DNA of 64,000 nt from an uncultured Gammaproteobacteria bacterium (GTDB lineage: Bacteria > Patescibacteriota > Patescibacteriia > Magasanikbacterales > UBA922). The stretch covers positions 38,546 to 102,545 of the forward strand of contig CAYMVY010000001.1 of assembly GCA_964394405.1 (NCBI GenBank). Direction: 5' to 3'. Every line of letters starts with the position of its first letter. Positions within the stretch are counted from its first letter, which is position 1. The notes beneath the pieces are model-generated. The model was given only the letters and a program-made list of their open reading frames with translations, searched no databases and was not told the origin of the DNA. This document shows, in pieces, positions 12,137 through 63,046 of the stretch. The position numbers and the translations under genes are program-made.

Positions 12137-12252
12137 AATGCTAGTAGTATAGCAACAATTGGCTTATTAAAAAATCCTCTCTTCGAGGAATGAATCGACC
12201 GTCCTCACCAACTGCGTGTAGCAATTGATGAGGACGACCATGTGGTGGTGGA

Positions 12253-12684
12253 TCAGCCGAGCGTGCCCGCCAAGATCGGCGCGAAGAGCTTCTCGGGATC
12301 TTCGGACTCGACAGTGCCCTCACCCTTCTCCAGGTAGACGCGCATGCGCCCCGTGCGCTCGAGTGGAACGTCGTGCGCCAAGTAGAACACATCGACCTTG
12401 AAGAACCTCTCCTCGATCAGGTCACGGATCTGGCCGATCAGGAGCAACGCCCCCGGCTTCGGCTCGTAGTAGGAGATGCTCTCCACGAACAGCTCGAGCT
12501 GATTCGGGAAGATGCCACGCCCGTCGACACAGACCGTCATGGGCTGACGATCAGTGGTGTGGTAGTAGTCCCGGTGGGACACATAGATGTCCCAGATCCC
12601 CGAATTGTTCGAATTCGAGACGATCGGAAGGGTGACAAAATCTTTCCCCTCCTCCCCGACAGACACGTTGTCCAAAGCTCCCAT
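12253..12684 (-). CDS. Hypothetical protein A1 of GC-rich island A (paralog of the 58303-58725 protein)
   Basis: Internal Met preceded by the SD gtcgccAGGGGGttatcATG. About 55% GC. Shares the spaced motif EGxxF..LP...YYxxxDRxxxxVxDGxGxFxN with the island E protein. Confidence 0.6.
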   Translation of the reverse strand: MGALDNVSVGEEGKDFVTLPIVSNSNNSGIWDIYVSHRDYYHTTDRQPMTVCVDGRGIFPNQLELFVESISYYEPKPGALLLIGQIRDLIEERFFKVDVFYLAHDVPLERTGRMRVYLEKGEGTVESEDPEKLFAPILAGTLG

Positions 12685-12875
12685 GATAACCCCCTGGCGA
12701 CTGAAGAAAAACACGTGCTGGTGTCGCAAACCAGACAGAAAAAAATATCATACATAGTGAAAAATGTCAATAATAAAACAAAAAATCCTCTGAATAAAGG
12801 ATTGACCAATCCGCATTCACCCAAGCCGAAGCTCAGATGAATGCGGAACAGAGAACGTTGACCCACACACTGACC

Positions 12876-13175
12876 TCACGGGTCGAGGACGATCACGTAG
12901 CGCGTCACCTGTTCATCCGGCTGATGGGGCACGTCGTGAACATTGGGACCGATCCGTTCGATCGAGACGATGGTATTGTAGTTCAGCATGGCGAACCACG
13001 CCGAATCCGGGAACACAATCATCTCAGACGTCCGATCACCGTCATGCGTCCAGTGAAGGGAAAAAAGATTTTCAGGAAAACCCCCATAGGAGATGCGGCC
13101 AGTCTCCTTATTACCCTGATCATCATACCGAGCCAGCGGCGAACCACGAAATTCCAAACCGTACAGAATATCCAT
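12876..13175 (-). CDS. Hypothetical protein A2 of GC-rich island A
   Basis: 99-aa ORF with the SD caGGAGGGttttccATG and its own promoter about 35 nt upstream. GC-rich codon usage. Confidence 0.55.
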   Translation of the reverse strand: MDILYGLEFRGSPLARYDDQGNKETGRISYGGFPENLFSLHWTHDGDRTSEMIVFPDSAWFAMLNYNTIVSIERIGPNVHDVPHQPDEQVTRYVIVLDP

Positions 13176-13213
13176 GGAAAACCCTCCTGAAACAGTGGCG
13201 TTTCTTATCATAC

Positions 13214-13242
13214 TATCTACAATATTTCATACCCAAAGTCAA
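13214..13242 (-). promoter_or_regulatory. sigma70 promoter (TTGACT-N17-TAGATA) for the island A cassette
   Basis: The minus strand reads aTTGACTttgggtatgaaatattgTAGATAgt. It is back-to-back with the plus-strand promoter at 13249. Confidence 0.5.
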
Positions 13243-13248
13243 TAAAAA

Positions 13249-13277
13249 TTGAAAAATATATATAGGTCGGGTATGAT
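13249..13277 (+). promoter_or_regulatory. sigma70 promoter (TTGAAA-N17-TATGAT) for the nucleotide-sanitation operon; near-leaderless mRNA
   Basis: The plus strand reads aTTGAAAaatatatataggtcgggTATGATacagcctgcgtATG. The -10 element ends only 11 nt before the ATG at 13289 and there is no SD. Confidence 0.5.
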
Positions 13278-13288
13278 ACAGCCTGCGT

Positions 13289-13813
13289 ATGAAACTTCTC
13301 AAACTCCCACAACTCAAACAAATCTACGAATACGACTGTGGCGCAACCGTACTCCAGTCAGTACTCGGCTACTTTGGCATCGAAGTGAAGCCACACAAAA
13401 TCAGAAAACATGCGGGAACAAACAAAGATGGCACCCTGATTGTCGGCATCACCGTAACTCTCGCAAAACACGGACTCAAATATACGTCAAAACAAATGAC
13501 CGTACGCGAAGTCACTCATTTTCTCGATACTGGCATCCCTGTCATACTCCTCCTCCAGGCATGGACGACCAAAAAGAATGTCAATTGGGAAACAGATTGG
13601 TCTGATGGCCACTATGTAGCGGCCATAGGATATGACAAGAAAAAAATGATATTCGCAGACCCCTGGTCATTCACACACACGTATCTAACTTTCGATGAAC
13701 TAAAAAAACGATGGCATGACAAAGATCCTCGGGGAAAAAAACACATCAACTGGGGAATCGCAGTCTACGGAAAAGATCCATCAATCAACAAAAAATTAAT
13801 CCACATGGATTAA
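13289..13813 (+). CDS. C39-like papain-fold cysteine peptidase (Peptidase_C39_2 family)
   Basis: Catalytic Cys in YDCGATVLQSVLGYFG and His in GHYVAAIGYD. Confidence 0.65.
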   Translation: MKLLKLPQLKQIYEYDCGATVLQSVLGYFGIEVKPHKIRKHAGTNKDGTLIVGITVTLAKHGLKYTSKQMTVREVTHFLDTGIPVILLLQAWTTKKNVNWETDWSDGHYVAAIGYDKKKMIFADPWSFTHTYLTFDELKKRWHDKDPRGKKHINWGIAVYGKDPSINKKLIHMD

Positions 13814-13816
13814 TAT

Positions 13817-14257
13817 ATGCATACACGACACACCATTATTCCCGCCGCATACCTCATACTCAAACAAGAAAACAAGATTCTTCTGATTCGCCGTTGTAAC
13901 ACCGGTTTTGAAGATGGAAATTATAGTATGATTGCCGGACATGTGGACCAAGGTGAGACATTTACTAAAGGTATGATTCGTGAAGCGAGAGAAGAAGCTG
14001 GAATCACACTCAATCCAGATGATATGAGATTAGCACACATGATGCATCGCAAATCTCACGTAGACGCTGAAGAAAGAATCGACGCATATTTTCTTGCAAA
14101 TACGTGGTCTGGTGAACTTACCAATAAGGAACCACACAAATGCGATGACTTCTCGTGGTTTGATATAAATGACTTACCAAAAAATGTTATCCCCTATATC
14201 AAATTCGCGTTGGAAAATATTAAAAAAAATATTTTCTATAGCGAATATGGATGGTAA
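13817..14257 (+). CDS. NUDIX hydrolase
   Basis: Nudix box GHVDQGETFTKGMIREAREEAGI. Confidence 0.85.
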   Translation: MHTRHTIIPAAYLILKQENKILLIRRCNTGFEDGNYSMIAGHVDQGETFTKGMIREAREEAGITLNPDDMRLAHMMHRKSHVDAEERIDAYFLANTWSGELTNKEPHKCDDFSWFDINDLPKNVIPYIKFALENIKKNIFYSEYGW

Positions 14258-14574
14258 TAAATACTATGGATTTCAAAGAATTACAAAAAATCATCGTCAA
14301 AAATGCACTTGAATACGGAAAAAGACATAACATACAAATAGATGCAGATTTTGCGCTCACTAAATTATTTGAAGAAGTAGGAGAACTGGCGCAGGCAGTA
14401 CTCATTCATCAGAAAAAATGTCGCACAAAAAAATTAGTACCCGAAGAGATATCAAAAAAAGAGCTCGGAAAAGAACTCGCTGATGTTATCGGCATGACCA
14501 TTGTACATGCTCACCTGCTCGGGATTGATCTGGAAGAAGCGATTGATAAAAAATGGATTCATAAAGAGGTATAG
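14251..14574 (+). CDS. MazG-like nucleotide pyrophosphohydrolase
   Basis: Contains the EEVGELAQAV and ELADVIGM motifs of the MazG all-alpha NTP-PPase fold; 107 aa. Confidence 0.75.
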   Translation: MVINTMDFKELQKIIVKNALEYGKRHNIQIDADFALTKLFEEVGELAQAVLIHQKKCRTKKLVPEEISKKELGKELADVIGMTIVHAHLLGIDLEEAIDKKWIHKEV

Positions 14575-14577
14575 AAT

Positions 14578-14928
14578 ATGAAAAACCGCAAACGCCTCAT
14601 GTATATTGAACATAAAGGAGTGGATGGGTTGACCGGACATAGTAGAATCGGTTGGGTTGAAATTTCCAAAACGGGACGATCATACCACTACCAAGGAAAA
14701 ACTTTCAAAAAAGAACGTGGTGGTTTCAAACACAATTGTATCGATTGGGAAACCAAAGAAATGTATTGGATCTCAGGACCGAAAAAAGACGGAAGTGATA
14801 CATTGTACGGGAAAGGCATAGTGGAAATTGATGACGATGCGCGTGAAGAATACTGGATCAATATTCGAAAACTTCCACAATATGTAAACGAACGAACATA
14901 TAATACCGCTCGGAGATATAATAGCTAA
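14578..14928 (+). CDS. Hypothetical protein (operon member)
   Basis: 116-aa ORF tightly packed with its neighbours (3-nt gaps). No recognizable motif. Confidence 0.6.
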   Translation: MKNRKRLMYIEHKGVDGLTGHSRIGWVEISKTGRSYHYQGKTFKKERGGFKHNCIDWETKEMYWISGPKKDGSDTLYGKGIVEIDDDAREEYWINIRKLPQYVNERTYNTARRYNS

Positions 14929-14931
14929 CAT

Positions 14932-15513
14932 ATGAAAATCGCAATTGATATCGATGACGTACTGGCAAATTTTACCCCAGCACTCATTGAATTCCACAAT
15001 ACACAATACGGAACCAATTACACTCTCAATCATTTCAATTCATACCATCTTGAAGAAGTGTGGGGCGGGACTCGAGAAGAAGCAATTGACAAAGTATTTA
15101 TTTTTTACGAAACGCCAGAGTTCAAAAATGTTGACGTCATTGAGAATGCAAAAAATGTACTCTACGAACTCAAACAGAGTCACGACCTAGTCACCATGAC
15201 AGCACGCCCAGAAGCAATCAGGGACAAAACAGAAGAATGGATTGGGAGACATTTCCCGGGGCTATTTTCACACATTCATATTGCCAATCGATTTTCAAAG
15301 ACAGGCCCAAAAACTACCAAAGCTGAATTGTGCGAAAAACATGGTGTAGATATGCTTATCGACGACTCACTCGATTACGCGCTCCAGGCAGTAGCACCCC
15401 ATCGCCGAGTATTGTTATTCGACAGACCATGGAACCAGACACCAAATCTACCAGAAGGAATTCATCGCGTACATTCGTGGAAAGAAATCCCAAAACTCAT
15501 ATGGAATTCCTAG
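14932..15513 (+). CDS. HAD-superfamily 5'(3')-deoxyribonucleotidase (NT5C-like)
   Basis: N-terminal DxDxV motif (KIAIDIDDVLANF) and LIDDS motif. Confidence 0.75.
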   Translation: MKIAIDIDDVLANFTPALIEFHNTQYGTNYTLNHFNSYHLEEVWGGTREEAIDKVFIFYETPEFKNVDVIENAKNVLYELKQSHDLVTMTARPEAIRDKTEEWIGRHFPGLFSHIHIANRFSKTGPKTTKAELCEKHGVDMLIDDSLDYALQAVAPHRRVLLFDRPWNQTPNLPEGIHRVHSWKEIPKLIWNS

Positions 15514-15989: not shown

Positions 15990-16018
15990 AACACCCGGCC
16001 ATGGCCGGGTGTTTTTTT
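15988..16018 (+). terminator. Intrinsic terminator
   Basis: aaaacacccggccatggccgggtgttttttt. Confidence 0.7.
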
Positions 16019-16109
16019 CTTCCTGAATCATTGTTTATATTAAAAAAATATTTTGTGTAAATAGTAAAAATTGCTATACTAAGAGCGGTAAAATAACTAA
16101 ATTATTTAT

Positions 16110-17375: not shown

Positions 17376-17390
17376 AAAATCTAATGTACA

Positions 17391-17420
17391 AAAAATACCC
17401 CGGTAAAGCGGGGTATTTTT
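17391..17420 (+). terminator. Intrinsic terminator (bidirectional; also serves fusA)
   Basis: aaaataccccggtaaagcggggtatttttt. Confidence 0.7.
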
Positions 17421-17458
17421 TGTATGTATTCGTGTTAATTCGTATGTAAATTTGCGCT

Positions 17459-22598: not shown

Positions 22599-22600
22599 AT

Positions 22601-22727
22601 TTTAAACTCAAAAGTAAAAACTCAAAGCTTAAAACTGTATCTTAAAACTAAAAACTTAACTTCCCCTGATTTTGAATTTTTAGTTTCAGTTTTACCTTTT
22701 GACATTTAAGTTTTGAATTCTCCTTTG
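22601..22727. repeat. AT-rich MITE-like repeat element, copy 1 (AAAACT array / spacer / AGTTTT array)
   Basis: The left arm has TTAAAACT repeated at about 13-nt phase and the right arm has AGTTTT repeats. The right arm ttttgaatttttagtttcagttttaccttttgacatttaagttttgaattc is about 88% identical to 38486-38536. Confidence 0.6.
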
Positions 22728-22800
22728 TCGGGCTAACACGACTTGAACGTGCGACCTCATGACCCCCAGCCATGCGCTCTACCAACTGAGCTATAGCCCG
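22728..22800 (-). tRNA. tRNA-Pro (anticodon GGG)
   Basis: 73-nt cloverleaf CGGGCTATAGCTCAGTTGGTAGAGCGCATGGCTGGGGGTCATGAGGTCGCACGTTCAAGTCGTGTTAGCCCGA. C1:G72, G37, T-loop TTCAAGT; no encoded CCA. Confidence 0.85.
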
Positions 22801-23206
22801 ATACACTCATTGCCCACAGATAATAAAACAAAAAACCCTTTTTTTCAAGAGTTCCTTGTATGACCCCAGAGAGATGCAGTACGAAATACTACTCCTAAAG
22901 ATATAGGTGGGTGGCCGCAACGCGAGCCCACGGGCTCGAGAAATATTGGCTTCCCAATGTAGTATGTTTGTAGAATAGTATATGTACTGTATCACTAAGT
23001 ACCAGGGTCAATTCTTAATATATCAAGAGGTACACAATTGTGCAAATACGACTCATCCACTGCCTAGAACATTCTAAATAATGGAGGAGAGACGACCAGA
23101 TGAGACAGGTCGCCGAGAAGCAAAAGAACAATAACGAAAACGCGATAACGCATAAGTCGGGATATCCCAACTCACACGTTACCACTTGGACCTCCCCTGA
23201 CTTCGA

Positions 23207-23406
23207 TCAAGAGTCGTGATTGCCCCGCTGCCGTTTGACCGGAGCTGGGACGGACACGACCTGGGACTCAAAGAGGGGGCGCCGTCGACATCCACGGATA
23301 GTCGCGGGGTCGAGGCGAGCCGTGTCACCACCCGAAGGAGTCGAGGACTTTTTCTTGGACTTGGGCAAATTCTTTGCCCACACTTGATACACATGATTTT
23401 CAGGCA
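23207..23406 (-). CDS. Small hypothetical protein of GC-rich island B (66 aa)
   Basis: SD ttctGAGGAtcgctATG; MPENHVYQVWAKNLPKSKKKSSTPSGG...; basic, GC-rich codons. Confidence 0.4.
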
Positions 23407-23693
23407 TAGCGATCCTCAGAAGGATGCTCGATTGAGTATTCTCAAACTTTGAGTACACTCGCACCAAGCGAAAGTCGGTCCAGACGAAATTCTTTCTTTG
23501 AAAAAACTTATTCTAAAAACATTGCATAAGAATACAAAAATAAAAAAAGCTTGTAAAGAATATTATTACTAATTCCTTACAAGTTATTCACAGATAGATC
23601 TGCCACTATCTTCCGATAATGAAAGACAATGGCAGATGGGCGGTCGACGAGTGGGCACTCATCGATCGCCCCGAGGAAAAGAACGGACGAAAC

Positions 23694-23910
23694 TCACGTA
23701 ACGGCATCAACCTGCTGAGCAGGCGCGTAAGCCGGTGTATACCAGCCAGACCTGTCAACAGTGATAGTTCGCTTGCAGACACACGTGACGCGGCAGCCAT
23801 CTCCACGTGCTTCCACGCTTTCAATGACACCAGCGCCACACGAACACTCGAAGGCCTGACCTTCTCGAATGCGATCAAGCCGACACATTCCTTTGAGTCC
23901 AATGGGCATG
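23694..23910 (-). CDS. Small Cys-rich protein of island B (71 aa)
   Basis: SD cacacAAGGAGagcgaccATG; MPIGLKGMCRLDRIREGQAFECSCGAGVIESVEARGDGCRVTCVCKR with six Cys, possibly a metal-binding knot. Confidence 0.5.
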
Positions 23911-24023
23911 GTCGCTCTCCTTGTGTGACGGGTGAACAAGACGAATGGACGCGGAAGTTGCGAGAGAAGCAACGCGAGAGCCAGAGTTGCCGGCTCAGCG
24001 CGTTACCACACTCATCTTGATAG

Positions 24024-24224
24024 TCAGTCGAGGCCGTACTTGTGACGCAACTCGATCCCCTCACGGAGCTCGAAGAACGGATCGGTGACGTACCTCGGTC
24101 GACGGTTGGGACCGCGATTCGAGTTGTACTTGTGCTTCGGCGGGAGAACCGCCTCCGGGGACTGGGTGGACGCAGTGTCGAGGTTCTGCTGCTGTGACGG
24201 CAGCTTGGAATCAGTTCCAGACAT
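24024..24224 (-). CDS. Small S/T/Q-rich protein of island B (66 aa), member of the MS-x-(T/S)...SP / RxRY..D..EL motif family
   Basis: SD cgAGGGAatgccATG; MSGTDSKLPSQQQNLDTASTQSPEAVLPP...NRRPRYVTDPFFELREGIELRHKYGLD. Confidence 0.5.
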   Translation of the reverse strand: MSGTDSKLPSQQQNLDTASTQSPEAVLPPKHKYNSNRGPNRRPRYVTDPFFELREGIELRHKYGLD

Positions 24225-24304
24225 GGCATTCCCTCGAAATTCTCTCGTGTGGCGCACGAGAGTTATTCGTCTTCCCAAGAATTCCCACCGTAGGAATACT
24301 TGTT

Positions 24305-24355
24305 CAAACGAGTTGCTGTAGGGACAAAAAATCTATCGACACAGCAACTCGTTTG
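24305..24355. repeat. Perfect 15-bp inverted repeat with 21-bp spacer (caaacgagttgctgt ... acagcaactcgtttg)
   Basis: Exact reverse-complement arms read directly from the sequence. Located between two small island B ORFs; no downstream T-tract. Confidence 0.7.
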
Positions 24356-24478
24356 TGACAAATATCCAACAAAATATATAAGGAACAAAACACTCTATTT
24401 CACCCCCTACTAAGTACATATTTTTTACTCAATAGGGGGTGAGCAACGCAGAGGACGATACGTTTTCACCCCACAGAT

Positions 24479-24655
24479 TCACCGAGTGGATGAGGGATCT
24501 CGGAACTTGTGGTTCAGATGATCCTTGTTCGGACGGAGGAGCGACAGGAGAAGCTCTTCGTCGATCTCGTCATAGCGACGACGAGAAGAGAACGGTTCGG
24601 TAGTCGGCGTGGGCGCGACAGGCTCTGGGGGACGGGGAGATTGAGTATCAGACAT
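24479..24655 (-). CDS. Small S/T/P-rich protein of island B (58 aa), same family as 24024-24224
   Basis: GGAG 9 nt upstream; MSDTQSPRPPEPVAPTPTTEPFSSRRRYDEIDEELLLSLLRPNKDHLNHKF. Shares RxRY-D-EL-L-LR with the 24024 ORF. Confidence 0.45.
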   Translation of the reverse strand: MSDTQSPRPPEPVAPTPTTEPFSSRRRYDEIDEELLLSLLRPNKDHLNHKFRDPSSTR

Positions 24656-24704
24656 GGTAGACGGCTCCATTCTAGAGTGGAATGATTCTCTGGGCGAAGA
24701 GGCA

Positions 24705-24740
24705 TTGATCTTGAGGCGAGTTCGAATCTATACACAATTT
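24705..24740 (-). promoter_or_regulatory. Putative promoter (TTGAAT-N18-TGTATAGAT, extended -10) for island B small ORFs
   Basis: The minus strand reads gTTTGAATgtatatatactgaaattgTGTATAGATtcg. Confidence 0.3.
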
Positions 24741-24923
24741 CAGTATATATACATTCAAACCCGCCTCACCAAAGCACATATCAAATACAGACACTCACCA
24801 ATCTCTGCGTTGCAATTTGTAAAGAACAATATCGCTACCCCCCTTCAAAAATCCACATAGCGTTCCTATTCAGGAAAGTGAATATCGATTCACATCGGTA
24901 CTCACTTTCCTGAATTTTTTCCT

Positions 24924-26579: not shown

Positions 26580-28658
26580 TTACAAATCGTCAAGCGACTT
26601 CAAAAAACTTCTTACTGGCTTAGTACTATCATCTGCTTCATACGTAATATCGTCTACATCATCGCTCGGATCAGAAAAAACGAGTGTACTCGATCCCTGA
26701 CTTCGCTCATGATGGATCAAATCCCGATCAATCTCTTCGATAAATCGACTAGGGCCTTGCAGGACACTAAACGAACTCGCAAGTAATGGATATGAGAGAT
26801 ATAAAAACTTTTTCGCGCGAGTAATCGCGACATAAAACAACCTCCGCTCTTCTTCCACTCCATCAACCTCCCTCATTGATCGCTCACTGGGGAATTGACC
26901 AGCAGAAACATGGAGAATAAAAACCGCCTCCCACTCCAATCCTTTTGCCTGATGAATCGTAGAAAGTACAATTTTTTCCTGATCCTCATCAGCGCTTTTT
27001 GCAACCTTACCCGAATAACTCTCCTGCAAACTCGCTTCAGCTAAAAAATCAGAAAGCCGTGATTCCCCTTCCAGAGATATATACTGATCAGCAAACAGCG
27101 CAAGCTGTTCAATATCTTGCAGACGTTCTTTATAATCTGGATATTCTGCTTCCAAATATTCTGTATACGGAGATGCCAAAATTCCCCGAATCATTTCTCC
27201 TGGTCCTCGCTCATGAGAATCAACAACTTCATTCCAAATTCGCAAAAATTCTCCCCAACCCAATTGTCCTCGGAGAGAAAGAATACTTCCCGCGTGATCG
27301 ATAGGCTCGTTCGGTGCCAGTCCACGGACCATGTCAATAATTTTTTCAGCACCCGACGGACCAATTCCTGTCTGCATCGTAAGAACACGCATCCATGCAA
27401 TTGAATCTCCCCGATTCGCAAAAATTCGCAAATACGCGAGTATATCTTTCACATGCGCGCGTTCAAAAAATCGCACACCGCCACGATAATCATACGGAAT
27501 TTGTCTTCGTGTTAACTCGATTTCAAGTGATTGTGAATGGAATGCGGCGCGAAATAATACGGCGATTTCAGACAACGAAACCCCTTCTTCTGATAATTCA
27601 AGAATTCGATCCGCAATAAATCGTGCTTCTTCGAGTGCATCAACAAATGCATGTACTTCAGGCTTGGTAAAATTCTCCCGAATACTCCGCAACTCTTTTT
27701 TATATTGCTTTTTATTTTGTGCAATAACCTCATTTGCAACCCCGAGAATATCCGGAGTCGAACGATAATTCGTTTCAAGTCGAAAAATGTGAGCATCTTT
27801 GTATGTATGTTCGAAATCAAGAATGTTTGTGATATCAGCAGCACGAAATGAATAAATACTCTGTGCGTCATCCCCTACTACCAACAAATTCTGATGAACA
27901 CTCGCAAAAAAACGAATAATCGATGCCTGGATCTTATTCGTATCCTGATACTCATCAACTAAAATATATTGAAATTGTGTAGCATATTTTTTACGTACCT
28001 GCTCTGAAGATGAAAGTAGTAAAAATAAATTGACGAGCAAATCATCAAAATCCATTACATTACTTTCTCGTTTTCTTCTACTATAATCTTCTGCAATACG
28101 AGATAATGCTTCTGTAAAATCGACCCACTGTGGATGTTTTTCGAGGAGGACATCCGCAACCGTACGCTCTGCATTTCTCGCAAAACTAAGTAGTGATGCA
28201 ACTACCGCAGGAGAAGGAAATTTTTTATACGTACGCTGTATTCCTTCATTCCCGATACACAATTTGATCATGTCGCGTGCGTCTTCTGAATCAAGAATAT
28301 TAAACGTATTGTTATAACCAAGCAATGGTGCGTACTGTTTGAGTATACGATATGCAATATGATGGAATGTTCCAGACCATGGCAATTTCACTCCGCCCCG
28401 AGTGAGCGATTCCACACGATGCAACATTTCACGAGCAGCTTTATTGGTGAAGGTGAGTAATAAAATTGAAGAAGGATCAATACCCTTCTCTAGTAAATAC
28501 GCAACTCGATACGTAATCGCACGTGTCTTACCACTTCCCGCTCCCGCAAGCACCAGGCACGGACCATCGCCATGCAATACGACATCAAGTTGTTCTGTAT
28601 TTAATTCTTTTTGAAAATCAATCATAACGATTTTATCCCATTTAGACTGAGAAGCCAC
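26580..28658 (-). CDS. UvrD/PcrA/Rep-family ATP-dependent DNA helicase
   Basis: 692 aa with Walker A AGAGSGKTRAITYR and SF1 helicase motifs. Confidence 0.9.
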   Translation of the reverse strand: MASQSKWDKIVMIDFQKELNTEQLDVVLHGDGPCLVLAGAGSGKTRAITYRVAYLLEKGIDPSSILLLTFTNKAAREMLHRVESLTRGGVKLPWSGTFHHIAYRILKQYAPLLGYNNTFNILDSEDARDMIKLCIGNEGIQRTYKKFPSPAVVASLLSFARNAERTVADVLLEKHPQWVDFTEALSRIAEDYSRRKRESNVMDFDDLLVNLFLLLSSSEQVRKKYATQFQYILVDEYQDTNKIQASIIRFFASVHQNLLVVGDDAQSIYSFRAADITNILDFEHTYKDAHIFRLETNYRSTPDILGVANEVIAQNKKQYKKELRSIRENFTKPEVHAFVDALEEARFIADRILELSEEGVSLSEIAVLFRAAFHSQSLEIELTRRQIPYDYRGGVRFFERAHVKDILAYLRIFANRGDSIAWMRVLTMQTGIGPSGAEKIIDMVRGLAPNEPIDHAGSILSLRGQLGWGEFLRIWNEVVDSHERGPGEMIRGILASPYTEYLEAEYPDYKERLQDIEQLALFADQYISLEGESRLSDFLAEASLQESYSGKVAKSADEDQEKIVLSTIHQAKGLEWEAVFILHVSAGQFPSERSMREVDGVEEERRLFYVAITRAKKFLYLSYPLLASSFSVLQGPSRFIEEIDRDLIHHERSQGSSTLVFSDPSDDVDDITYEADDSTKPVRSFLKSLDDL

Positions 28659-28770
28659 GTATGATAAGTACGTAGCAAGCTTCTCTCCTCGCGGCGGCCG
28701 AAGCCGCCGCCCCGTGAATTGTGAGATCTCTCAGATTAGGTAGCCGACGTACTCCGGACCCCCTTAGATA

Positions 28771-29256
28771 TTACCCGTCGACCAATTCGATGGTGCTCTC
28801 GTTGTCCACCTGGACATAGATGGTTCGAAAGTAGCCCTGAGGAGCCCATCGCCCCGTCACGAGAACTTCCTGAACAATCGAATACCAGTTGCGATCACCG
28901 AAAAGCACAGTCCAGACACGCTTCCTCACTTCGTTCATGTGGTACGGTCGTGGTACCTGCGGACGCCGTTGGCCCATACGCAGATGCCAGTAATCATACT
29001 TCTCTTCCGAGCCCTGCCAGCAGACGTCGACCGTCACTCGTCTGAAGTAGCCCACAGGGGCGCACTCCTCGACGAGAAGGATGACGACTTCAAACGGGGT
29101 CATGTTTCCGAAGAGAGTGTGCCATGCCTCATGATACCGACGAGCGAGACGAACCAGATTGTCTGGTTGTGGCATACCCTTCTTACAGCGTGAACGTGGC
29201 ACCTTGTGATGCGACGTCATTTGTGACGGATCATCCGACTTCGCACGTTTTCCCAT
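28771..29256 (-). CDS. HNH-nuclease-like protein with degenerate zinc ligands, in GC-rich island C
   Basis: SD gctcGAGAGGGcacaaATG; HHKVPRSRCKKGMPQPDNLVRLARRYHEAWH matches HH..P.S.GG....NL..LC..CH...H, with the Cys ligands replaced by A and Y. About 58% GC. Confidence 0.5.
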   Translation of the reverse strand: MGKRAKSDDPSQMTSHHKVPRSRCKKGMPQPDNLVRLARRYHEAWHTLFGNMTPFEVVILLVEECAPVGYFRRVTVDVCWQGSEEKYDYWHLRMGQRRPQVPRPYHMNEVRKRVWTVLFGDRNWYSIVQEVLVTGRWAPQGYFRTIYVQVDNESTIELVDG

Positions 29257-29344
29257 TTGTGCCCTCTCGAGCAAAAGGACAAACACTTAAACAATCATAA
29301 CCCTGATTGAAAAAAAACACAACTTCTGTTAGTGTTAGCAACAT

Positions 29345-30506: not shown

Positions 30507-30977
30507 ATGATGAAAATAACCATTATCTCAATTGGAAAACTCAAAGAATCATATTGGAAAGAAGCAGAAGCTGAATATCTGAAACGACTTTCTTCATTTG
30601 CAAAAGTTGACATAATTGAACATAAAGAAATCGGTTTTACGGAAAAAGATACTATTGAACCTATAAAAGAAAAAGAAGCTAAAATAATTCAGAGCTCTAT
30701 TCCAGATTCTTCATATATAATCGCCCTTGATCCAGAAGGAAAAGAGGCTACATCCGAAGCGTTATCAAAAAAAATAAGTGACCTAGAACACACCACTTCT
30801 CACCTTACCTTTATCATCGGTGGCCCACTCGGACTTCATGAATCAGTTTTCAAAAAAACCAACCTTAAACTATCACTTTCCCCGCTCACTTTCACCCATC
30901 AGATAACCCGAGTAATCCTCCTCGAGCAGATTTATCGGGCATATATGATAAAATCTGGAAAATCATATCACCACTAG
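30507..30977 (+). CDS. rlmH: 23S rRNA (pseudouridine1915-N3)-methyltransferase RlmH (SPOUT)
   Basis: MKITIISIGKLKESYWKEAEAEYLKRL ... FIIGGPLGL; about 155 aa. Confidence 0.8.
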   Translation: MMKITIISIGKLKESYWKEAEAEYLKRLSSFAKVDIIEHKEIGFTEKDTIEPIKEKEAKIIQSSIPDSSYIIALDPEGKEATSEALSKKISDLEHTTSHLTFIIGGPLGLHESVFKKTNLKLSLSPLTFTHQITRVILLEQIYRAYMIKSGKSYHH

Positions 30978-30980
30978 ACC

Positions 30981-31009
30981 TTGACAAGCACGCAGTTCTC
31001 GTGTAGACT
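30981..31009 (+). promoter_or_regulatory. Consensus-like sigma70 promoter (TTGACA-N17-TAGACT) of GC-rich island D
   Basis: The plus strand reads cTTGACAagcacgcagttctcgtgTAGACTg. Confidence 0.5.
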
Positions 31010-31071
31010 GTCTCGGTCTCTAAAAAGACGTATACGGAAGTATACGTTTTGCGTTCTAGGAGGAACGAGTC

Positions 31072-31275
31072 ATGCAACACAACCGTCACACGCAACGCCC
31101 CCACCAACCCAACACCCATCTACCCGCCCCGAGTCTGCAGGCACGCGTCCAAGCGTTCGCCTGGCGCACTGCAGCACGAATCGTGCTCCCGCTCTTCGTC
31201 ATGGGACTCCGGAAATCGGAACGCCCACCACAGCGAAACACGGTGACCGATCAGGGTCACGGGCGACGTCTGTAG
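31072..31275 (+). CDS. Small hypothetical protein of island D (67 aa) with a hydrophobic segment
   Basis: Strong SD ctAGGAGGAacgagtcATG. MQHNRHTQRPHQPNTHLPAPSLQARVQAFAWRTAARIVLPLFVMGL... Flanked by its own promoter and terminator. Confidence 0.5.
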   Translation: MQHNRHTQRPHQPNTHLPAPSLQARVQAFAWRTAARIVLPLFVMGLRKSERPPQRNTVTDQGHGRRL

Positions 31276-31326
31276 TCGCGAGTGCGATTCGACGTGGTGC
31301 GGGAGGACAGAGAGATAAAAATCAAA

Positions 31327-31398
31327 GACCACCCGCTACCACATGATATTCTAAACAATTGGAATATCGTGTGGGAGAATCCGGGTGGTTTTTGTTTT
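31327..31398. terminator. Nested-hairpin bidirectional terminator (island D ORF and queA)
   Basis: Outer stem accacccg/cgggtggt plus tttttgtttt; inner stem ccacatgatattc/gaatatcgtgtgg. Confidence 0.5.
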
Positions 31399-33860: not shown

Positions 33861-34433
33861 CTATAAATGATACTTTTTCAATTCTCGTTCACGCACTCGG
33901 TAATCCGGTAATATATGAGAAACTTCTCTCCAAAATTGTGCCGAATGATTATGGTGCCGCAAGTGACAGAGTTCATGTACCACTACATAATCCCGCAAAT
34001 CTTCAGATAAAAAAATAAGCTTATAATTAAAATTCAAATTTTCTTTGGTAGAACAACTCCCCCACCTACTCGACGTATTTTTGATAGAAATCCGTTTGAA
34101 GGTAAATCCATGCAACTGAGCAAAATGCTTTACCCGCTCAGTAATTATTTTTTTTGCTCGGGCTTTATTCGCATGATATGAAAACTTCGGACCAGAAAAT
34201 TGAGATTTGGTTACAGCTTCCAGTTTTTTCAACACTCCCTCAATCCATTCGTGCTTTGATCGTACAAATTTCTCAATAACTGTTTTTGGTACCAGCTTTG
34301 GTGCAGTGACTCGCACTTTGCCTTTGGAGTTTACAGACAACGTGATGCGACGCAACCGTGCGCGTCTGTGTAATGAATATTCCATAAAATTCAATTTGAA
34401 GGGGGACGACGTATCGCCCCCCCTCCCAGTCAT
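33861..34433 (-). CDS. DUF45/YgjP-family zinc metallohydrolase (HExxH)
   Basis: VVHELCHLRHHNH motif. The start may be at 34433 (ATGA overlap with the upstream small ORF) or at the internal MEYSL (34385). Confidence 0.7.
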   Translation of the reverse strand: MTGRGGDTSSPFKLNFMEYSLHRRARLRRITLSVNSKGKVRVTAPKLVPKTVIEKFVRSKHEWIEGVLKKLEAVTKSQFSGPKFSYHANKARAKKIITERVKHFAQLHGFTFKRISIKNTSSRWGSCSTKENLNFNYKLIFLSEDLRDYVVVHELCHLRHHNHSAQFWREVSHILPDYRVRERELKKYHL

Positions 34434-34603
34434 CGATGTCGAAGTCGCACCACCCTACCAAAGGCAACGAAGGTGACCACAGTATGAGGGGCACTACACT
34501 TTTTGGGGGCAGGATCCTGCGGTGACATCCTGTTGAGGAGCGCCTGAATCCTCTCAGGTGAGATGATCTGATGTCCGACCGAATCAACGCCAATATTTCC
34601 CAT
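34430..34603 (-). CDS. Small GC-rich ORF (57 aa), translationally coupled to the DUF45 gene
   Basis: Strong SD gtctAGGAGGtcgtataATG. MGNIGVDSVGHQIISPERIQALLNRMSPQDPAPKK... The stop TGA overlaps the downstream ATG as ATGA. About 57% GC. Confidence 0.4.
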   Translation of the reverse strand: MGNIGVDSVGHQIISPERIQALLNRMSPQDPAPKKCSAPHTVVTFVAFGRVVRLRHR

Positions 34604-34636
34604 TATACGACCTCCTAGACGAAGACTAAAAAAAGT

Positions 34637-57092: not shown

Positions 57093-57515
57093 CTATTTTT
57101 TATTCGCTTCAGCTGCAGCTTTCTCGTCCATATAAAATACTTCCCATACATGCCCATCCAAATCCTCAATATCCCGAGCATACATCCAACCATAGTCTTG
57201 TGGGGGCACTGGTTCAGTAGCCCCAGCAGCAAGAGCTTTTGCAAGAAATGCATCCACCTCTTCCCTACTATCGACAGATAGGGCATTCAGAACTTCTACC
57301 TGCCGTTTTGCATCAATAATTTCTTTTTTAGTAAAATCTTTAAATCTTTTCTCCACCAAGAGCATGGCAAATATATGGTCACTAATAATCATACATGTTG
57401 CATTCTCATCCGTGAATTGTGGGTTGAAAGTAAACCCAATCTTAGTAAAGAATTCAATAGATTTCTGCAGATCCTTCACAGGTAAATTTACAAAAATTTT
57501 TTTGGCCATAATCAA
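57093..57515 (-). CDS. VOC/glyoxalase-bleomycin-resistance family protein
   Basis: 140 aa with a paired beta-alpha-beta-beta-beta module pattern (KKIFVNLPVKDLQKSIEFFTKIGF). Confidence 0.65.
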   Translation of the reverse strand: MIMAKKIFVNLPVKDLQKSIEFFTKIGFTFNPQFTDENATCMIISDHIFAMLLVEKRFKDFTKKEIIDAKRQVEVLNALSVDSREEVDAFLAKALAAGATEPVPPQDYGWMYARDIEDLDGHVWEVFYMDEKAAAEANKK

Positions 57516-57550: not shown

Positions 57551-57582
57551 ACAAAACACTGGTAGATGCCAGTGTTTTGAAA
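57551..57582. terminator. Intrinsic terminator closing island E
   Basis: acaaaacactggtagatgccagtgttttgaaa. Confidence 0.55.
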
Positions 57583-57845
57583 ATGCTTCCAGTTGAGACT
57601 TATGCTCCAAATGTCTTATTGCGCGTACGCTTGCCCACAGCTACCGGATCTCGGAAAGCTTTGGGAGGAGTCTGTAATTTCCGAGTGTCAAAAGAATGTC
57701 CTGATTTCTGTTCTAGGTTACTATATTGTTCATTTTTCTTCAACGTATCAAGATGATTTTTATACCATTTTTTCATATAAAAAAATATTGTGTGCATCGC
57801 CCCCACGATCCCGAGAGATCATGGAGGCGCTGCTCTAGATGGAGC

Positions 57846-58049
57846 CTAGAACCCGAAACGGGAGCGGATCCAGTTCCACACACCCTTGGAGGGCTGCTGA
57901 TTGGACGGGGTGACCGCCGTGCTCTTCTGGTCGGGAGTGGCGAGCGCACGCAAGATGTCGGCGTCGGGCGACGGGGACACCTTGAGATTGCTGTTCGACG
58001 AGGTCGACTGGCGGAGACGGGACTGACGGAGTTCCCTGGAGTTGGACAT
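57846..58049 (-). CDS. Small S/T-rich protein E2 of GC-rich island E (68 aa), similar in composition to island B small proteins
   Basis: MSNSRELRQSRLRQSTSSNSNLKVSPSPDADILRALATPDQKSTAVTPSNQQPSKGVWNWIRSRFGF. Its own promoter lies upstream; the first ATG of the track ORF lies upstream of the predicted TSS. Confidence 0.45.
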   Translation of the reverse strand: MSNSRELRQSRLRQSTSSNSNLKVSPSPDADILRALATPDQKSTAVTPSNQQPSKGVWNWIRSRFGF

Positions 58050-58155
58050 CGTGGCACCATTTCCGGAGCGAGCGAATAAGAGCGCCGAGACTGACGCAAT
58101 ACTGCTACACTTCGGAGTTAAGAGCCACGAAACAAATAATTTTGAGTATCTACAC

Positions 58156-58184
58156 AATCTACCCTATAATATATGTTTTGTCAA
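58156..58184 (-). promoter_or_regulatory. sigma70 promoter (TTGACA-N17-TAGATT) for the E2 ORF
   Basis: The minus strand reads gaTTGACAaaacatatattatagggTAGATTgtg. Confidence 0.45.
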
Positions 58185-58302
58185 TCAGTCTGAAGTATAA
58201 AAACAAAAAATAATTGCTATGATAAGCAATTACTAAGAGAATCGCGACGCACCCCCCTGTAGGAAAAACAGGGAGGCGCGTTGCACAGAAGTCGTGTGTC
58301 GA

Positions 58303-58725
58303 TCAGACGCTCGAGGCGAGCATCTTCTTCCCCACCTCTTCGTCGGTCGCGCGCCGGACGCAGGCGTAGAGGGTATCGACCCACACGACGGTCACGTGGG
58401 ACACACCAGGGACGAGTCCTTCGGGTGCGAACATCCGACACGTGCGGGAGCCGCCCGGATTCTTGAAGTAGAACCAGACGCCACCATCCTCGACCCCATG
58501 CCTACGGTCCCGACAGAGCGGGTAATAGACCGGCGTCTCCGGATACTTGTTCGCCTTGTTGCTCGGGAGCGACCGCGCCTCGGCCGGCAGGAGGAAGGTC
58601 AAGCCTTCCTTGAGAAGAACGGACGGCGGTCCGTTGTCCACCGGGATGTCGAGGTGATGGAACACCTCCTTCCCACTCAGATGGCTCATCACCACCTCGG
58701 GCGTATCATCTTCAGAGACCCACAT
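58303..58725 (-). CDS. Hypothetical protein E1 of GC-rich island E (140 aa), paralog of 12253-12684
   Basis: SD acAAGGGGGtcttacATG. Shares EGLTFLLP...YYPLCRDRRHGVEDGGVWFYFKN with island A's EGKDFVTLP...YYHTTDRQPMTVCVDGRGIFPN. Confidence 0.6.
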   Translation of the reverse strand: MWVSEDDTPEVVMSHLSGKEVFHHLDIPVDNGPPSVLLKEGLTFLLPAEARSLPSNKANKYPETPVYYPLCRDRRHGVEDGGVWFYFKNPGGSRTCRMFAPEGLVPGVSHVTVVWVDTLYACVRRATDEEVGKKMLASSV

Positions 58726-58763
58726 GTAAGACCCCCTTGTGCATCATCGCCGATGATTCAGCG

Positions 58764-58792
58764 AGACCAACACAAGATAGATGAAAAAAATG
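58764..58792 (-). promoter_or_regulatory. sigma70 promoter (TTGACA-N17-TATCTT) for E1
   Basis: The minus strand reads cTTGACAaaatcatttttttcatcTATCTT. Confidence 0.45.
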
Positions 58793-58897
58793 ATTTTGTC
58801 AAGTATACAAATAAAAAAACGCCTCATCTGAGTCGCTTGTTACACTCCATATATTGGAAACTGTTCAAAAAATATTAGAGACAATGAGTGGCGTCCA

Positions 58898-59185: not shown

Positions 59186-59337
59186 ACCAACTATTCCAAC
59201 ACAAAAACACTATATTTTCATGGCTCGCGTATACGGAGGAATTCCGAACATTTTTAGCTAAACTATAAACTTTCAAAGAGGAAAAAGTTTCTCTGTTTTT
59301 TACAGAATCTTTTTTGCTCGAAAGATAAAAAATTTTA

Positions 59338-60537: not shown

Positions 60538-60675
60538 TTAACAGGAGAGAACAGGACAAAATTAAAAATAGCTAATGTAAAATATTTTTTTGTTCTTCAC
60601 TAATTCACTTCCGAACTCTTGAAAAACCAGTTTTACAGAAAAACAGGCTCTTTTGAGCCTGCTCATCCTGCTGTG

Positions 60676-60747
60676 CTCCTCGACCAGGATTCGAACCTGG
60701 AACCTACTGGTTAACAGCCAGCCGTTCTACCATTGAACTATCGAGGA
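60676..60747 (-). tRNA. tRNA-Asn (anticodon GUU)
   Basis: TCCTCGATAGTTCAATGGTAGAACGGCTGGCTGTTAACCAGTAGGTTCCAGGTTCGAATCCTGGTCGAGGAG; the anticodon loop is CTGTTAA. Confidence 0.88.
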
Positions 60748-60756
60748 ATATGGAGG

Positions 60757-60786
60757 AAGAAAAAACCCGCATCTAGCGGGATTTCA
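60757..60786 (-). terminator. Intrinsic terminator after the DoxX gene
   Basis: The minus strand reads gaaatcccgctagatgcgggttttttcttc. Confidence 0.55.
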
Positions 60787-60899
60787 TGTTCTTCTTAATG
60801 TACACGAAAACCCGATTACTCTAGAAAGTAATTATTGCAATTATTATTGTTGTTTCGATTGATTTTCATAGCATGTATTGTATATCACACACGTATTCA

Positions 60900-61355
60900 T
60901 TATGTCAACTTACCGAGCCATGCAAACTTACCGAGCCATGCATCGAGGCCCCATATTCTCCCCGCTCGGGTACAATAGAATACACACAAGACTAACATAT
61001 AGATAATATGCTCATCGACGATATACGCATGCGCATTGGGATAGGGAAAATCAAGTGCCGCGAGATAAAACAAAAACATCAATAGTGCTCCAAGTACTGA
61101 GCTCAATCGTACAAAAATCCCAAGTATGAGAGAAATTCCCAATAAGGTCAGACCCCACATGACAAAGATATTAACCATCGGGAGAACACTAGGATTCAAA
61201 AGCCAGTGATAAAACCAGACAAAACTTTTTGCTCCTTTAATATACCCTTCCGCAGACCATGCAGGATCAACAATCTTGGTAATTCCTGCATACAGCATCA
61301 ACCAACCCAATGAAATGCGCAATACTACGAGAGACAATTTTTGTTTAGCAGACAT
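60900..61355 (-). CDS. DoxX-family membrane protein
   Basis: 151 aa with 4 TM helices; RISLGWLMLYAGITKI, typical of DoxX. Confidence 0.65.
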   Translation of the reverse strand: MSAKQKLSLVVLRISLGWLMLYAGITKIVDPAWSAEGYIKGAKSFVWFYHWLLNPSVLPMVNIFVMWGLTLLGISLILGIFVRLSSVLGALLMFLFYLAALDFPYPNAHAYIVDEHIIYMLVLCVFYCTRAGRIWGLDAWLGKFAWLGKLT

Positions 61356-61363
61356 AATAAAAA

Positions 61364-62350
61364 TTATCTAATTCCAACCAACTCACGAACATCCTCCATA
61401 GTCTGTTCAGCAACAATTTTTGCTTTCTCCATGCCAACCGCAAGAATCTCAGCAACTTCATCATGTCCGCGCATAAGCTCGTCTCGACGAGCGCGAAAGT
61501 CAAAAAAGTAATCACCAATAACTCGTGCGAGTTCACTCTTCAAATCTCCGTAACGAATAGATCCGTCTTTTTCTACTTTTGCAAACTGCACATGCGCTTT
61601 TTTGTCCCCGAAAATTTTCAGCAATCCCAATAAATTAGCAACACCTGGTGACCCTTCCCCACCTTCGGTCGCAGTCACTGCTTTTTTCAACTTTTTTTCA
61701 ATCACTCCTGGCTCATCAGCAAGCTCGAGTACATGTCCCTCCCCAAGGGACTTACTCATCTTTTTGGTTGGTTCAAGTAGACTCATAACCTTTGGAGTCT
61801 CCGTAAGAATATGTTTTACTTCTGGAAAAAATTTGTCATATTTATTATTGAACCATCGCGCGATGTCTCTCGTTAATTCCACATGTTGTACCTGATCTTG
61901 TCCTACAGGAATTGCAGAACCTCGATACAGGAGAATATCTGCAGCCTGAAGAACTGGATAAGTAAAAAGTCCAGTATTAATATTCTTACTTTGACTCGCA
62001 GATTTATCTTTGAACTGTGTCATACGCTCAAGCTCGGCAATCGGCGTCACACAATTAAAAATCCAACCGAGTTCAGTGTGTTCAGGTACATGAGATTGTA
62101 CAAAAAAAGTTGATTTCTTCGGATCAATCCCGGCTGCAAGCAATTCAGATGCAGTTCGAAGTATCTGAGCTTTCCGTTCTTCTGAACTCCGATTACCTGT
62201 AAGGGCGTGTAAATCTGCAATAAAAAAATAACAATCATACTTTCCGGAATTCTGGAGATCAACCCAATTTTTTACTGCACCAAGATAATTTCCGATATGC
62301 AAATTTCCTGTTGGCTGAATACCAGAGACGATAATCTGTTTTTTTGCCAT
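61364..62350 (-). CDS. trpS: Tryptophan--tRNA ligase
   Basis: HIGH-like TGNLHIGNYLGA and KMSKS motifs; 328 aa. Confidence 0.92.
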   Translation of the reverse strand: MAKKQIIVSGIQPTGNLHIGNYLGAVKNWVDLQNSGKYDCYFFIADLHALTGNRSSEERKAQILRTASELLAAGIDPKKSTFFVQSHVPEHTELGWIFNCVTPIAELERMTQFKDKSASQSKNINTGLFTYPVLQAADILLYRGSAIPVGQDQVQHVELTRDIARWFNNKYDKFFPEVKHILTETPKVMSLLEPTKKMSKSLGEGHVLELADEPGVIEKKLKKAVTATEGGEGSPGVANLLGLLKIFGDKKAHVQFAKVEKDGSIRYGDLKSELARVIGDYFFDFRARRDELMRGHDEVAEILAVGMEKAKIVAEQTMEDVRELVGIR

Positions 62351-62467
62351 AACGCTAATCAGTTAAAGATAAATCAAGTGTACTATAGACGTGCTTTGTT
62401 TTCAATAATAGTTGTAACGGTGCAGTGGGTTGGAGGAAACTTTCCCCCAAACCCACCGCAACCAGGA

Positions 62468-62731
62468 TCAGCGCGCAGAAACCCTCAAAAAACTGATCTT
62501 CTTACCCCCTTCAGGCGGAATAATCATCTGAATGCGCCCGGAAATACCCTCGCGTTCAAAGGTTTTCAGCGCGTCATCGATAGTCCGCTCGACCTCTTCG
62601 TTGAGTGCTTCAGACGTGAAATTCACGTGGACATCAGCATTCAGAGTGAGCACATGTGGAAAGCCCATCATGTTGAAGAGGATGTGAGAAGCGAGAATTT
62701 CCGTCACATGAAACTCAACTCGATAACTCAT
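62468..62731 (-). CDS. Hypothetical small protein in GC-enriched patch F (87 aa)
   Basis: SD cgtcGGAGGGaattATG; about 50% GC versus about 40% in flanks. No confident family assignment. Confidence 0.5.
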   Translation of the reverse strand: MSYRVEFHVTEILASHILFNMMGFPHVLTLNADVHVNFTSEALNEEVERTIDDALKTFEREGISGRIQMIIPPEGGKKISFLRVSAR

Positions 62732-63046
62732 AATTCCCTCCGACGAAAGAACTGTTCAGCGTAATTCCCACTCATTGCGCTGGGATATATATACGAACAG
62801 TCATATACACATCCCAAAACAAAACTCCCCTCGAGCATAGTCGAGAGGAGTTTGAATGGTAGAGGTATTACAAACTAAACATCTGGACTATGCGAAAGCC
62901 GAGCCCAAAAGTAAAAGTAAGTATGTGTGAAAAATAATTTCATAAACTTAAAATAAGCTTACTACAGTATCTGTAATGAGTCAAATGGTAATCTCTAAAA
63001 AAATACATACACTCATAAACCTCGTCAATCCCCTGTTTATCCCATC

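Follow-up and report, generated by a model that had tools for sequence, protein, structure and literature searches.

How do short segments of high GC content come to lie, and to stay, between the housekeeping genes of an AT-biased bacterial genome? This question is raised by the 64-kb window analysed here (the whole stretch of DNA, with an overall GC of 41.7%), which is part of a 596,879-bp NCBI contig from an uncultured bacterium of the Candidate Phyla Radiation (CPR). TGT and its neighbours in the window showed 85–95% protein identity to contigs labelled Candidatus Magasanikbacteria or Magasanikiibacteriota. Seven GC-rich islands are scattered along the window, and we compared them with loci of related genomes (denoted by L-numbers: L001–L006, L081, L086 and others). 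Our analysis showed that the islands carry small protein genes without mutual similarity, that several of these genes have orthologs at the same positions in related genomes, and that their GC content has remained high there. We put the probability at roughly 0.5 that the islands are native, lineage-restricted accessory cassettes of one Candidatus Magasanikbacteria clade, whose GC-richness is actively maintained.

GC-rich islands and their protein genes

Sliding-window analysis confirmed the seven GC-rich patches that a preliminary description had located in the window: islands A (12147–13150), B (23082–24747), C (28618–29287) and D (30977–31391), the 34.4-kb patch G (34306–34626), and islands E (57761–58788) and F (62408–62654). 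They sum to 5,351 nt, which is 8.4% of the window. Background 300-nt windows had a GC of 0.405 (standard deviation 0.038, maximum 0.493), and the islands peaked at 0.50–0.65, with z-scores in positional order of 5.8, 5.3, 4.4, 5.2, 3.0, 6.5 and 2.6. Island F and the 34.4-kb patch were the weakest by GC, as had been claimed. The 55–60% GC ascribed to the islands holds for their cores only; the mean per island is 51–55%, against a background of 40.5%. Assembly chimerism was considered and rejected, since other samples, assembled independently, yielded the same islands and junctions at 97–100% identity.

About 12 short protein genes (57–161 aa) were recognised in the islands, and 11 of the 12 are on the minus strand. 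Their products are A1 (143 aa), A2 (99 aa), B1–B4 (58–71 aa), C1 (161 aa), D1 (67 aa), G1 (57 aa), E1 (67 aa), E2 (140 aa) and F1 (87 aa). Open reading frames (ORFs) were scored by codon-position GC and ribosome-binding site, alongside sequence reading. The short ORFs reported earlier were recovered, and 8 out of the 10 looked up were identical to genes called independently on the NCBI contig. The islands do lie between conserved housekeeping genes, as the preliminary description had stated, and the flanking genes encode TrmD, NDK, a UvrD-type helicase, TGT, a SPOUT methyltransferase, QueA, YgjP, malic enzyme, TrpRS and RNase J.

The composition of the island genes is atypical for their host. 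GC at third codon positions (GC3) was 0.49–0.87, compared with 0.34 in 24 neighbouring native genes (range 0.27–0.47). At these positions the frequency of G is 0.34, of C 0.34, of T 0.23 and of A 0.09, and the excess is found in every codon family. Untranslated island regions are GC-rich as well (0.52, versus 0.34 in native intergenic DNA), and the excess stops at the promoters and at the T-tracts of the terminators. Ordinary translational selection was rejected as the cause, because the EF-Tu gene uses background codons.

The evidence favours protein genes over RNA genes. GC3 exceeded GC2 in 11 of 12 island genes, and in six family comparisons, those whose synonymous sites were not saturated (orthologs at 35–74% amino acid identity), the ratio of nonsynonymous to synonymous divergence (dN/dS) was 0.2–0.6, with values of about 0.35–0.5 for A1, 0.41 for B3 and 0.2 for D1. 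A GC3 well above GC2 together with dN/dS below 1 indicates that the islands are coding sequence, and ratios of this size at such identities indicate that the genes are fast-evolving; their dN was about 3–10 times that of the flanking genes. The weakest coding cases were G1, B1, B2 and E1, and B1, B4, E1 and G1 are small Ser/Pro/Arg-rich ORFs.

We regard it as very unlikely that some of the islands are instead structured non-coding or dual-function RNAs with incidental ORFs. GC-rich DNA has few stop codons, the coding evidence for B1, B4, E1 and G1 is weak, and the strand of E1 is disputed by the gene callers. The D transcript is also folded far more stably than its shuffled controls (z = −6.8), and the promoter and 5′ untranslated region (UTR) hairpin of D are more conserved than its ORF. 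However, the folding signal comes largely from terminator hairpins; z was −3.4 for A1, where terminal hairpins contribute too, and the folding of E1 does not exceed expectation (z = −1.9). Rfam gave no match in any island, either at the gathering score or at E ≤ 1, and the excess of GC3 over GC2 and the dN/dS values of A1, B3, B4, C1 and D1 point to translation, as judged from sequence. Structured RNA genes, which the preliminary description had named as a possible source of the GC shift, are thus not its explanation.

In the whole window, Rfam identified one 16S rRNA gene and two tRNA genes only. The 16S rRNA gene is complete (9332–10835, minus strand; 1436 bits, model positions 1–1533) and is GC-rich for an ordinary reason; it had been missed earlier. 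No 23S rRNA gene was found by Rfam in the 64 kb, so the rRNA genes appear to be unlinked. Distant relatives with about 46–48% GC contain segments of 58–63% GC, at 4531–5690 in L008, at 3333–5094 and 11784–12129 in L011, and at 1–292 in L032, which could be rRNA genes or larger islands.

Orthologs and turnover in fixed slots

The preliminary description had taken some of the ORFs to be paralogous between islands. This was contradicted by an all-against-all BLASTP of the 12 island proteins, in which no pair fell below E = 0.5. Short-word BLASTN between islands revealed no shared ends, no inverted or direct repeats and no shared motif longer than 13 nt. No family was found in more than one slot, and all cross-genome protein matches were positional orthologs. 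Searches of Pfam, PHROG, PADLOC and NCBIfam gave nothing above noise for the island proteins scanned.

Among 5.8 billion proteins, two homologs were found for E2, four for A1 and three for C1, and an exhaustive search with the A1 profile against 1.84 billion representatives recovered its own family only. Every placeable homolog of A1, E2 and C1 belongs to a related CPR genome and, except for one distant relative of C1, lies in the same syntenic slot. The A1 orthologs of L081 and L083 adjoin TrmD (64–67% amino acid identity, GC3 0.78–0.79). The homologs of E2 have 98% and 61% identity, and E2 adjoins DUF2177 in L084 and L085. C1 has an ortholog with about 45% identity in the same TGT–UvrD slot of L086, where its GC3 is 0.73 versus 0.27–0.38 in the flanks. 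Orthologs of B3 were found in L006 (about 52–55% identity) and L001, and of B4 in L003. D1 has homologs in the same slot as well; its promoter and 5′ UTR hairpin are conserved in L001, L004 and L005, with a divergent ORF. A metagenome scan with TGT for more sister genomes gave a best match just 66% identical, and nothing was gained from it.

Recent horizontal transfer is the routine reading of atypical GC content. The preliminary description had proposed either repeated acquisition from a high-GC donor, with an actinobacterial host as one candidate, or selfish or regulatory cassettes dispersed as a family. We consider recent transfer from such a host, and likewise a dispersed family, extremely improbable. 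Apart from the contrast in composition and the cassette-like organisation, nothing speaks for them. The genome belongs to the Magasanikbacteria and not to the Saccharibacteria, and homologs were seen only in related CPR genomes. Genes of recent arrival would be absent from close relatives, and native homologs at conserved positions, which the description itself had said would speak against its proposal, were found for A1 (beside TrmD), E2 (beside DUF2177), C1 (between TGT and UvrD), B3, B4 and D1, including in sister species. A dispersed family is contradicted by the lack of paralogy, of shared ends or repeats, and of any family occupying two slots. Viral contigs searched with five families contained no relatives, and a plasmid tblastn with E2 gave nothing; for F1 the homolog search consisted of the family libraries and the viral contigs. 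A phage tblastn with C1 returned a homing endonuclease as its single, weak match (E = 0.3).

Synteny with L001–L006 is conserved, and the slots differ in content: some hold an ortholog, some another small GC-rich gene, and some are empty. D separates the convergent genes for SPOUT and QueA, which abut in L002, where D is absent. G and B4 are absent in L001, and the A2 slot of L081 contains a different GC-rich ORF of 99 aa. The UvrD–TGT slot is occupied by three unrelated GC-rich families, namely C1 (in the window and in the distant genome L086) and two Cys-rich families in closer relatives, one shared by L001, L004 and L006 and the other by L002 and L003. Three loci of more distant Magasanikbacteria lacked islands of this kind. 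The core of island E differed among strains by 5 SNPs (single-nucleotide polymorphisms) in 1028 nt, compared with 20 in 814 nt of its flank.

Other genes beside the islands vary too. An AT-rich gene of glyoxalase/bleomycin-resistance type (57093–57515, minus strand) lies beside island E; it is missing in the strain-level relatives L084 and L085 and present in L171, and is thus an indel polymorphism next to a conserved GC island. A gene for a stand-alone C39 peptidase domain (13289–13813, plus strand) adjoins island A; L081 lacks it there. In L086, a C39_2 peptidase gene (1024–1917) adjoins the homolog of C1. C39 peptidases process double-glycine leader peptides.

As to the proteins themselves, the N-terminal motif of C1, HHKVPRSRC..N..YHEAWH, resembles that of HNH nucleases, and in the form HH.(V/I)PRSRC..N..YHEAWH it is nearly invariant in the three homologs. 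Its match to Pfam HNH is weak (12.3 bits, below the cut-off of 21.4; E = 0.2), with no match in the PDB. D1 is predicted to be a single-pass membrane peptide with one hydrophobic helix. Since the slots turn over and the proteins evolve fast, our guess is that the island proteins may be small conflict or host-interaction proteins.

Persistence of the high GC content

If the islands had been acquired with a foreign composition, their GC3 should have decayed towards that of the host. We estimated a neutral bound from the decay of synonymous GC/AT memory, calibrated on the adjacent housekeeping gene; the bound is a generous one, as it assumes an extreme GC3 of 0.95 at the species split. For A1 (window and L081, control TrmD) the neutral GC3 was 0.74, and 0.83 and 0.79 were observed. 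With TGT as control, B3 (window and L006) had a neutral value of 0.58 against 0.78 and 0.65 observed, the Cys-rich type II family (L002 and L003) 0.58 against 0.70 and 0.67, and the Cys-rich type I family (L001 and L004) 0.59 against 0.66 and 0.66. For C1 (window and L086, control UvrD), the values were 0.32 against 0.62 and 0.73; here the synonymous sites of C1 itself are saturated (proportion of synonymous differences, pS, 0.75). In these five family-and-flank comparisons, all 10 GC3 values were above the neutral-amelioration bound. Across five orthologs of A1, GC3 was 0.83, 0.79, 0.78, 0.74 and 0.65, with a locus GC of 0.39–0.50 outside the gene. That GC3 remains high in orthologs while the synonymous sites of their neighbours have turned over indicates that the genes are not recent imports.

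The substitutions in A1 suggest how this may come about. In codons for conserved residues, the rate of strong-to-weak (G/C to A/T) synonymous changes was 15/61 in A1 versus 30/62 in TrmD next to it (Fisher p = 0.009). There was no reduction in strong-to-strong or weak-to-strong changes, which indicates that A1 is not simply younger than its neighbour.

An old acquisition from an unsampled GC-rich pool (virus, plasmid or partner), with incomplete amelioration or repeated re-import into the slots, is in our view doubtful, though by no means negligible. The composition looks foreign in every codon family and in the untranslated regions, and the presence, absence and replacement of genes in the slots resemble what is seen at insertion hot-spots, with island B lying beside a tRNA gene. 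The net flux in A1 is from GC to AT, the low divergence of island E between strains relative to its flank could reflect recent spread, and small fast-evolving proteins could have diverged past recognition from the donor copies. However, none of the families tested yielded a homolog from a donor or a virus, the promoters and terminators are of host type, and orthologs occupy the same slots across species. The GC3 values above the bound, including those of the saturated pair, and the halved strong-to-weak rate of A1 with its other synonymous changes not reduced also argue against it.

GC-biased gene conversion at recombination hot-spots in the variable slots could likewise raise GC locally, and one paper contains a proposal of biased gene conversion for bacteria (PMC4450053). 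The slots are evidently hot-spots of recombination or turnover, and the substitution pattern is the expected one, with strong-to-weak changes lowered and weak-to-strong changes not reduced. The ends of the flanking genes nearest the islands are also slightly enriched (GC3 0.38 vs 0.33, Wilcoxon p = 0.03). But this effect is slight and stems largely from two genes, which argues against strong biased gene conversion, and the boundaries are very sharp: the GC3 of A1 is 0.83, and that of the adjacent 50 TrmD codons is 0.36. Heteroduplex formed during cassette exchange should span the conserved flanks no less than the cassette. We therefore regard this explanation as improbable.

We thus prefer native cassettes with maintained GC-richness, for which the following process is proposed. 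Each island would consist of one or several monocistronic cassettes, together encoding about 12 mutually unrelated, fast-evolving small proteins. The cassettes occupy fixed slots between housekeeping genes and would descend mostly vertically, being lost at times or swapped for other GC-rich small genes, probably by homologous recombination in the conserved flanks. GC-richness extends over the whole putative transcribed unit, untranslated regions included, and a force eliminating GC-to-AT changes would keep it above the equilibrium of the genome. The data show the anatomy of the cassettes, their coding status, the absence of paralogy, the orthology by position, the variation among slots and the lasting high GC3; the maintaining force, the route of recombination and any function are our inference. 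We think that this force is most likely selection on the transcript, e.g. on the stability or the structure of the mRNA. The alternative would be biased repair or conversion. Avoidance of nuclease or RNase motifs in the island transcripts was rejected, as ACA and the other motifs tested occurred at the expected level. More tentatively, a CPR clade may keep its independently transcribed ORFans at an equilibrium of their own, with a GC3 of about 0.65–0.8 against 0.34 in the genome, through a gene-class-specific force. This might be selection on transcript composition for a small-protein regulon, or GC-biased repair or diversification targeted to these genes; in either case, the composition would not be a vanishing remnant of an import.

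Several observations weigh against maintenance of native cassettes. Polarised counts show a net loss of GC in A1 (15–21 strong-to-weak versus 3–7 weak-to-strong changes), which indicates that some decay is ongoing, although parsimony is biased in skewed sequence. In the distant C1 homolog, which shares 36% identity and lies in a different context, GC3 is nearly normal (0.53 versus 0.48), so the GC excess is not intrinsic to the C1 family. The argument for maintenance relies on small genes and on five family comparisons, and it assumes that the ortholog split equals the species split and that flanking synonymous sites are near neutral. No specific RNA-level signal emerged, as only stop-codon and rare-codon triplets were depleted in the transcripts, and the folding z-scores are mixed and partly driven by terminal hairpins. 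Selection for GC would, puzzlingly, have to act on these genes alone and spare highly expressed native ones. The large protein database was queried with A1, E2 and C1, i.e. three of the 12 families. AlphaFold2 models from the family alignments were of low confidence (mean predicted local distance difference test, pLDDT, 57 for C1 and 46 for A1), and neither Foldseek against the PDB (nothing at E ≤ 0.001) nor a PDB profile search identified a relative.

Cassette anatomy and comparison with known systems

The best-defined cassettes would begin with a host-type sigma-70 promoter, followed by a leader of 25–100 nt, a GGAG-type site and an ORF of 57–161 aa, and would end in a long GC hairpin just past the stop codon and then a T-rich terminator. 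The strong ribosome-binding sites of the preliminary description were borne out: a GGAG-type site precedes 11 of the 12 ORFs, with the full AGGAGG in A2, D1 and G1 and GGAGG in F1, and only E1 has no clear site. Of the canonical TTGACA promoters with a 17-nt spacer (N17), perfect examples stand upstream of A1 (12770), D1 (30981), E1 (58184) and E2 (58802); A2 has the variant TTGACT-N17-TAGATA, and the remaining genes have weaker candidates or none, so this claim holds in part. All promoters are predicted, as consensus matches only, and the same type also occurs at native genes, e.g. at NDK (25777). A GC hairpin of 19–60 nt lies 3′ of the stop codon in A1, A2, C1, D1 and E2, with a separate T-tract terminator in A1 and A2. 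Thus A1, A2, E1 and E2 have putative promoters, and all of these but E1 have hairpins or terminators.

Cassette A1 (12175–12770, minus strand) has its predicted promoter, TTGACA-N17-TATTTT, at 12742–12770 and its ORF (143 aa, GC3 0.83) at 12253–12684, followed by a 37-nt GC hairpin (12200–12236) and a terminator (12175–12189). Cassette A2 (12784–13242, minus strand) has its predicted promoter at 13214–13242, an AGGAGG site, an ORF (99 aa, GC3 0.62) at 12876–13175, a hairpin at 12810–12847 and a terminator at 12784–12803; a gene for the identical protein had been called on the NCBI contig. Island B, on the minus strand beside the tRNA-Pro gene (22727–22800), contains four small ORFs: B1 (23207–23407, 66 aa), B2 (23694–23909, 71 aa, Cys-rich), B3 (24024–24224, 66 aa, GC3 0.78) and B4 (24479–24655, 58 aa), all on that strand.

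Cassette C1 (28680–29290, minus strand) contains an ORF at 28771–29256 (161 aa, GC3 0.62) and a GC hairpin at 28691–28710. Cassette D1 is on the plus strand (30981–31388), with a predicted promoter TTGACA-N17-TAGACT (30981–31009), the 5′ UTR hairpin (31028–31047), AGGAGG, an ORF of 67 aa (31072–31275) and a terminator hairpin of 60 nt (31329–31388). In patch G, G1 (34430–34618, minus strand) comprises AGGAGG at 34611–34618 and an ORF at 34430–34603 (57 aa, GC3 0.52), which abuts the start of the YgjP gene; G1 is a called gene and the weakest protein case.

In island E, cassette E1 (57765–58184, minus strand) has a predicted promoter TTGACA-N17-TAGATT (58156–58184) and a Ser/Pro-rich ORF (57846–58049, 67 aa, GC3 0.87). 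The strand of this gene is in conflict, as gene callers annotate a 108-aa ORF antisense to it (57726–58079, plus strand, GC3 0.47); the E1 frame was picked on GC3 alone, and it is the one behind the TTGACA-N17 promoter. Cassette E2 (58212–58802, minus strand) has a predicted promoter TTGACA-N17-TATCTT (58774–58802), an ORF at 58303–58725 (140 aa, GC3 0.80) and hairpins at 58255–58273 and 58212–58231. Island F, the weakest, contains F1 (62468–62731, minus strand, 87 aa, GC3 0.55), a called gene with a GGAGG site.

An eighth GC-rich mini-cassette, missed in the preliminary description, was found at 8493–8847 on the plus strand. Its predicted promoter (TTGACG-N17-TACAAT, 8493–8521) is followed by a leader of about 170 nt, an ORF at 8693–8794 for a hydrophobic peptide of 33 aa (MRLRVAIKRPESLFALSVVASGLILSIAGLFRS) and a 50-nt GC hairpin (8798–8847). 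This anatomy resembles that of a type I toxin or small membrane peptide. Two long intergenic palindromes, at 17384–17427 and 24868–24915, look like ordinary terminators; one is a bidirectional terminator with a 19-bp stem, and the other is imperfect, 48 nt long and downstream of NDK.

The preliminary description had not recognised the islands as a described system, and our full-text searches of the literature likewise returned no GC-rich small-gene cassettes in CPR or Patescibacteria. GC-rich ORFans at conserved positions across species have stayed GC-rich after the synonymous turnover of their neighbours. If this were true genome-wide, bacteria would offer a clear case of a compositional equilibrium specific to a gene class, and composition-based calls of horizontal transfer in CPR genomes would require caution. 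The small, fast-evolving and seemingly well-expressed proteins would then be candidates for the host-interaction or conflict biology of uncultured episymbionts. If it is not true, the islands would be ordinary hypothetical accessory genes of foreign origin.

Some known systems share parts of this anatomy. Like type I toxin-antitoxin systems, D1 and the 33-aa ORF at 8693–8794 combine one hydrophobic helix with a long, structured, GC-rich leader and a strong terminal hairpin. However, no antisense RNA was identified (no systematic search was made), and A1, A2, C1, E2 and F1 are 87–161 aa long and not hydrophobic. Integron cassettes are also small single-ORF units, mostly of unknown function, but each island unit has its own putative promoter, and the units are scattered rather than arrayed, with no attC-like shared inverted repeat.

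In the model of Lawrence and Ochman, horizontally acquired atypical islands reportedly ameliorate towards the composition of the host. The islands resemble such acquisitions in their strong GC and codon deviation at intergenic or tRNA-adjacent sites. They differ in that no donor was found, the signals are of host type, the positions are conserved, and GC3 lies above the neutral bound in 5 of 5 comparisons. At least one report mentions GC-rich alien genes in the AT-rich Lawsonia (PMC2671203).

Chromosomal hot-spots, or flexible genomic islets, likewise have fixed slots with variable content and short, lineage-restricted, fast-evolving ORFans. ORFans are usually AT-richer than their genome, with a GC3 on average about 12.5% below that of conserved genes (PMC4706650). 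The island genes, in contrast, are 7–22 GC points richer, with GC3 up to 0.87 versus 0.34, so the direction and the persistence of their bias are unusual.

Hendrix and colleagues are said to have described phage morons as promoter–ORF–terminator units between conserved lambdoid genes, often with atypical GC. The island cassettes are alike in this respect: units with their own promoter, one short ORF and their own terminator lie between conserved genes, are variably present and have a distinct composition. They differ in lying in a bacterial chromosome among housekeeping genes and outside any prophage context, as PHROG gave no matches and viral contigs no relatives. Their orthologs also persist at the same slot across species, and their odd composition does not fade. 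The islands therefore appear to be moron-like, with a GC-richness that is maintained rather than decaying.

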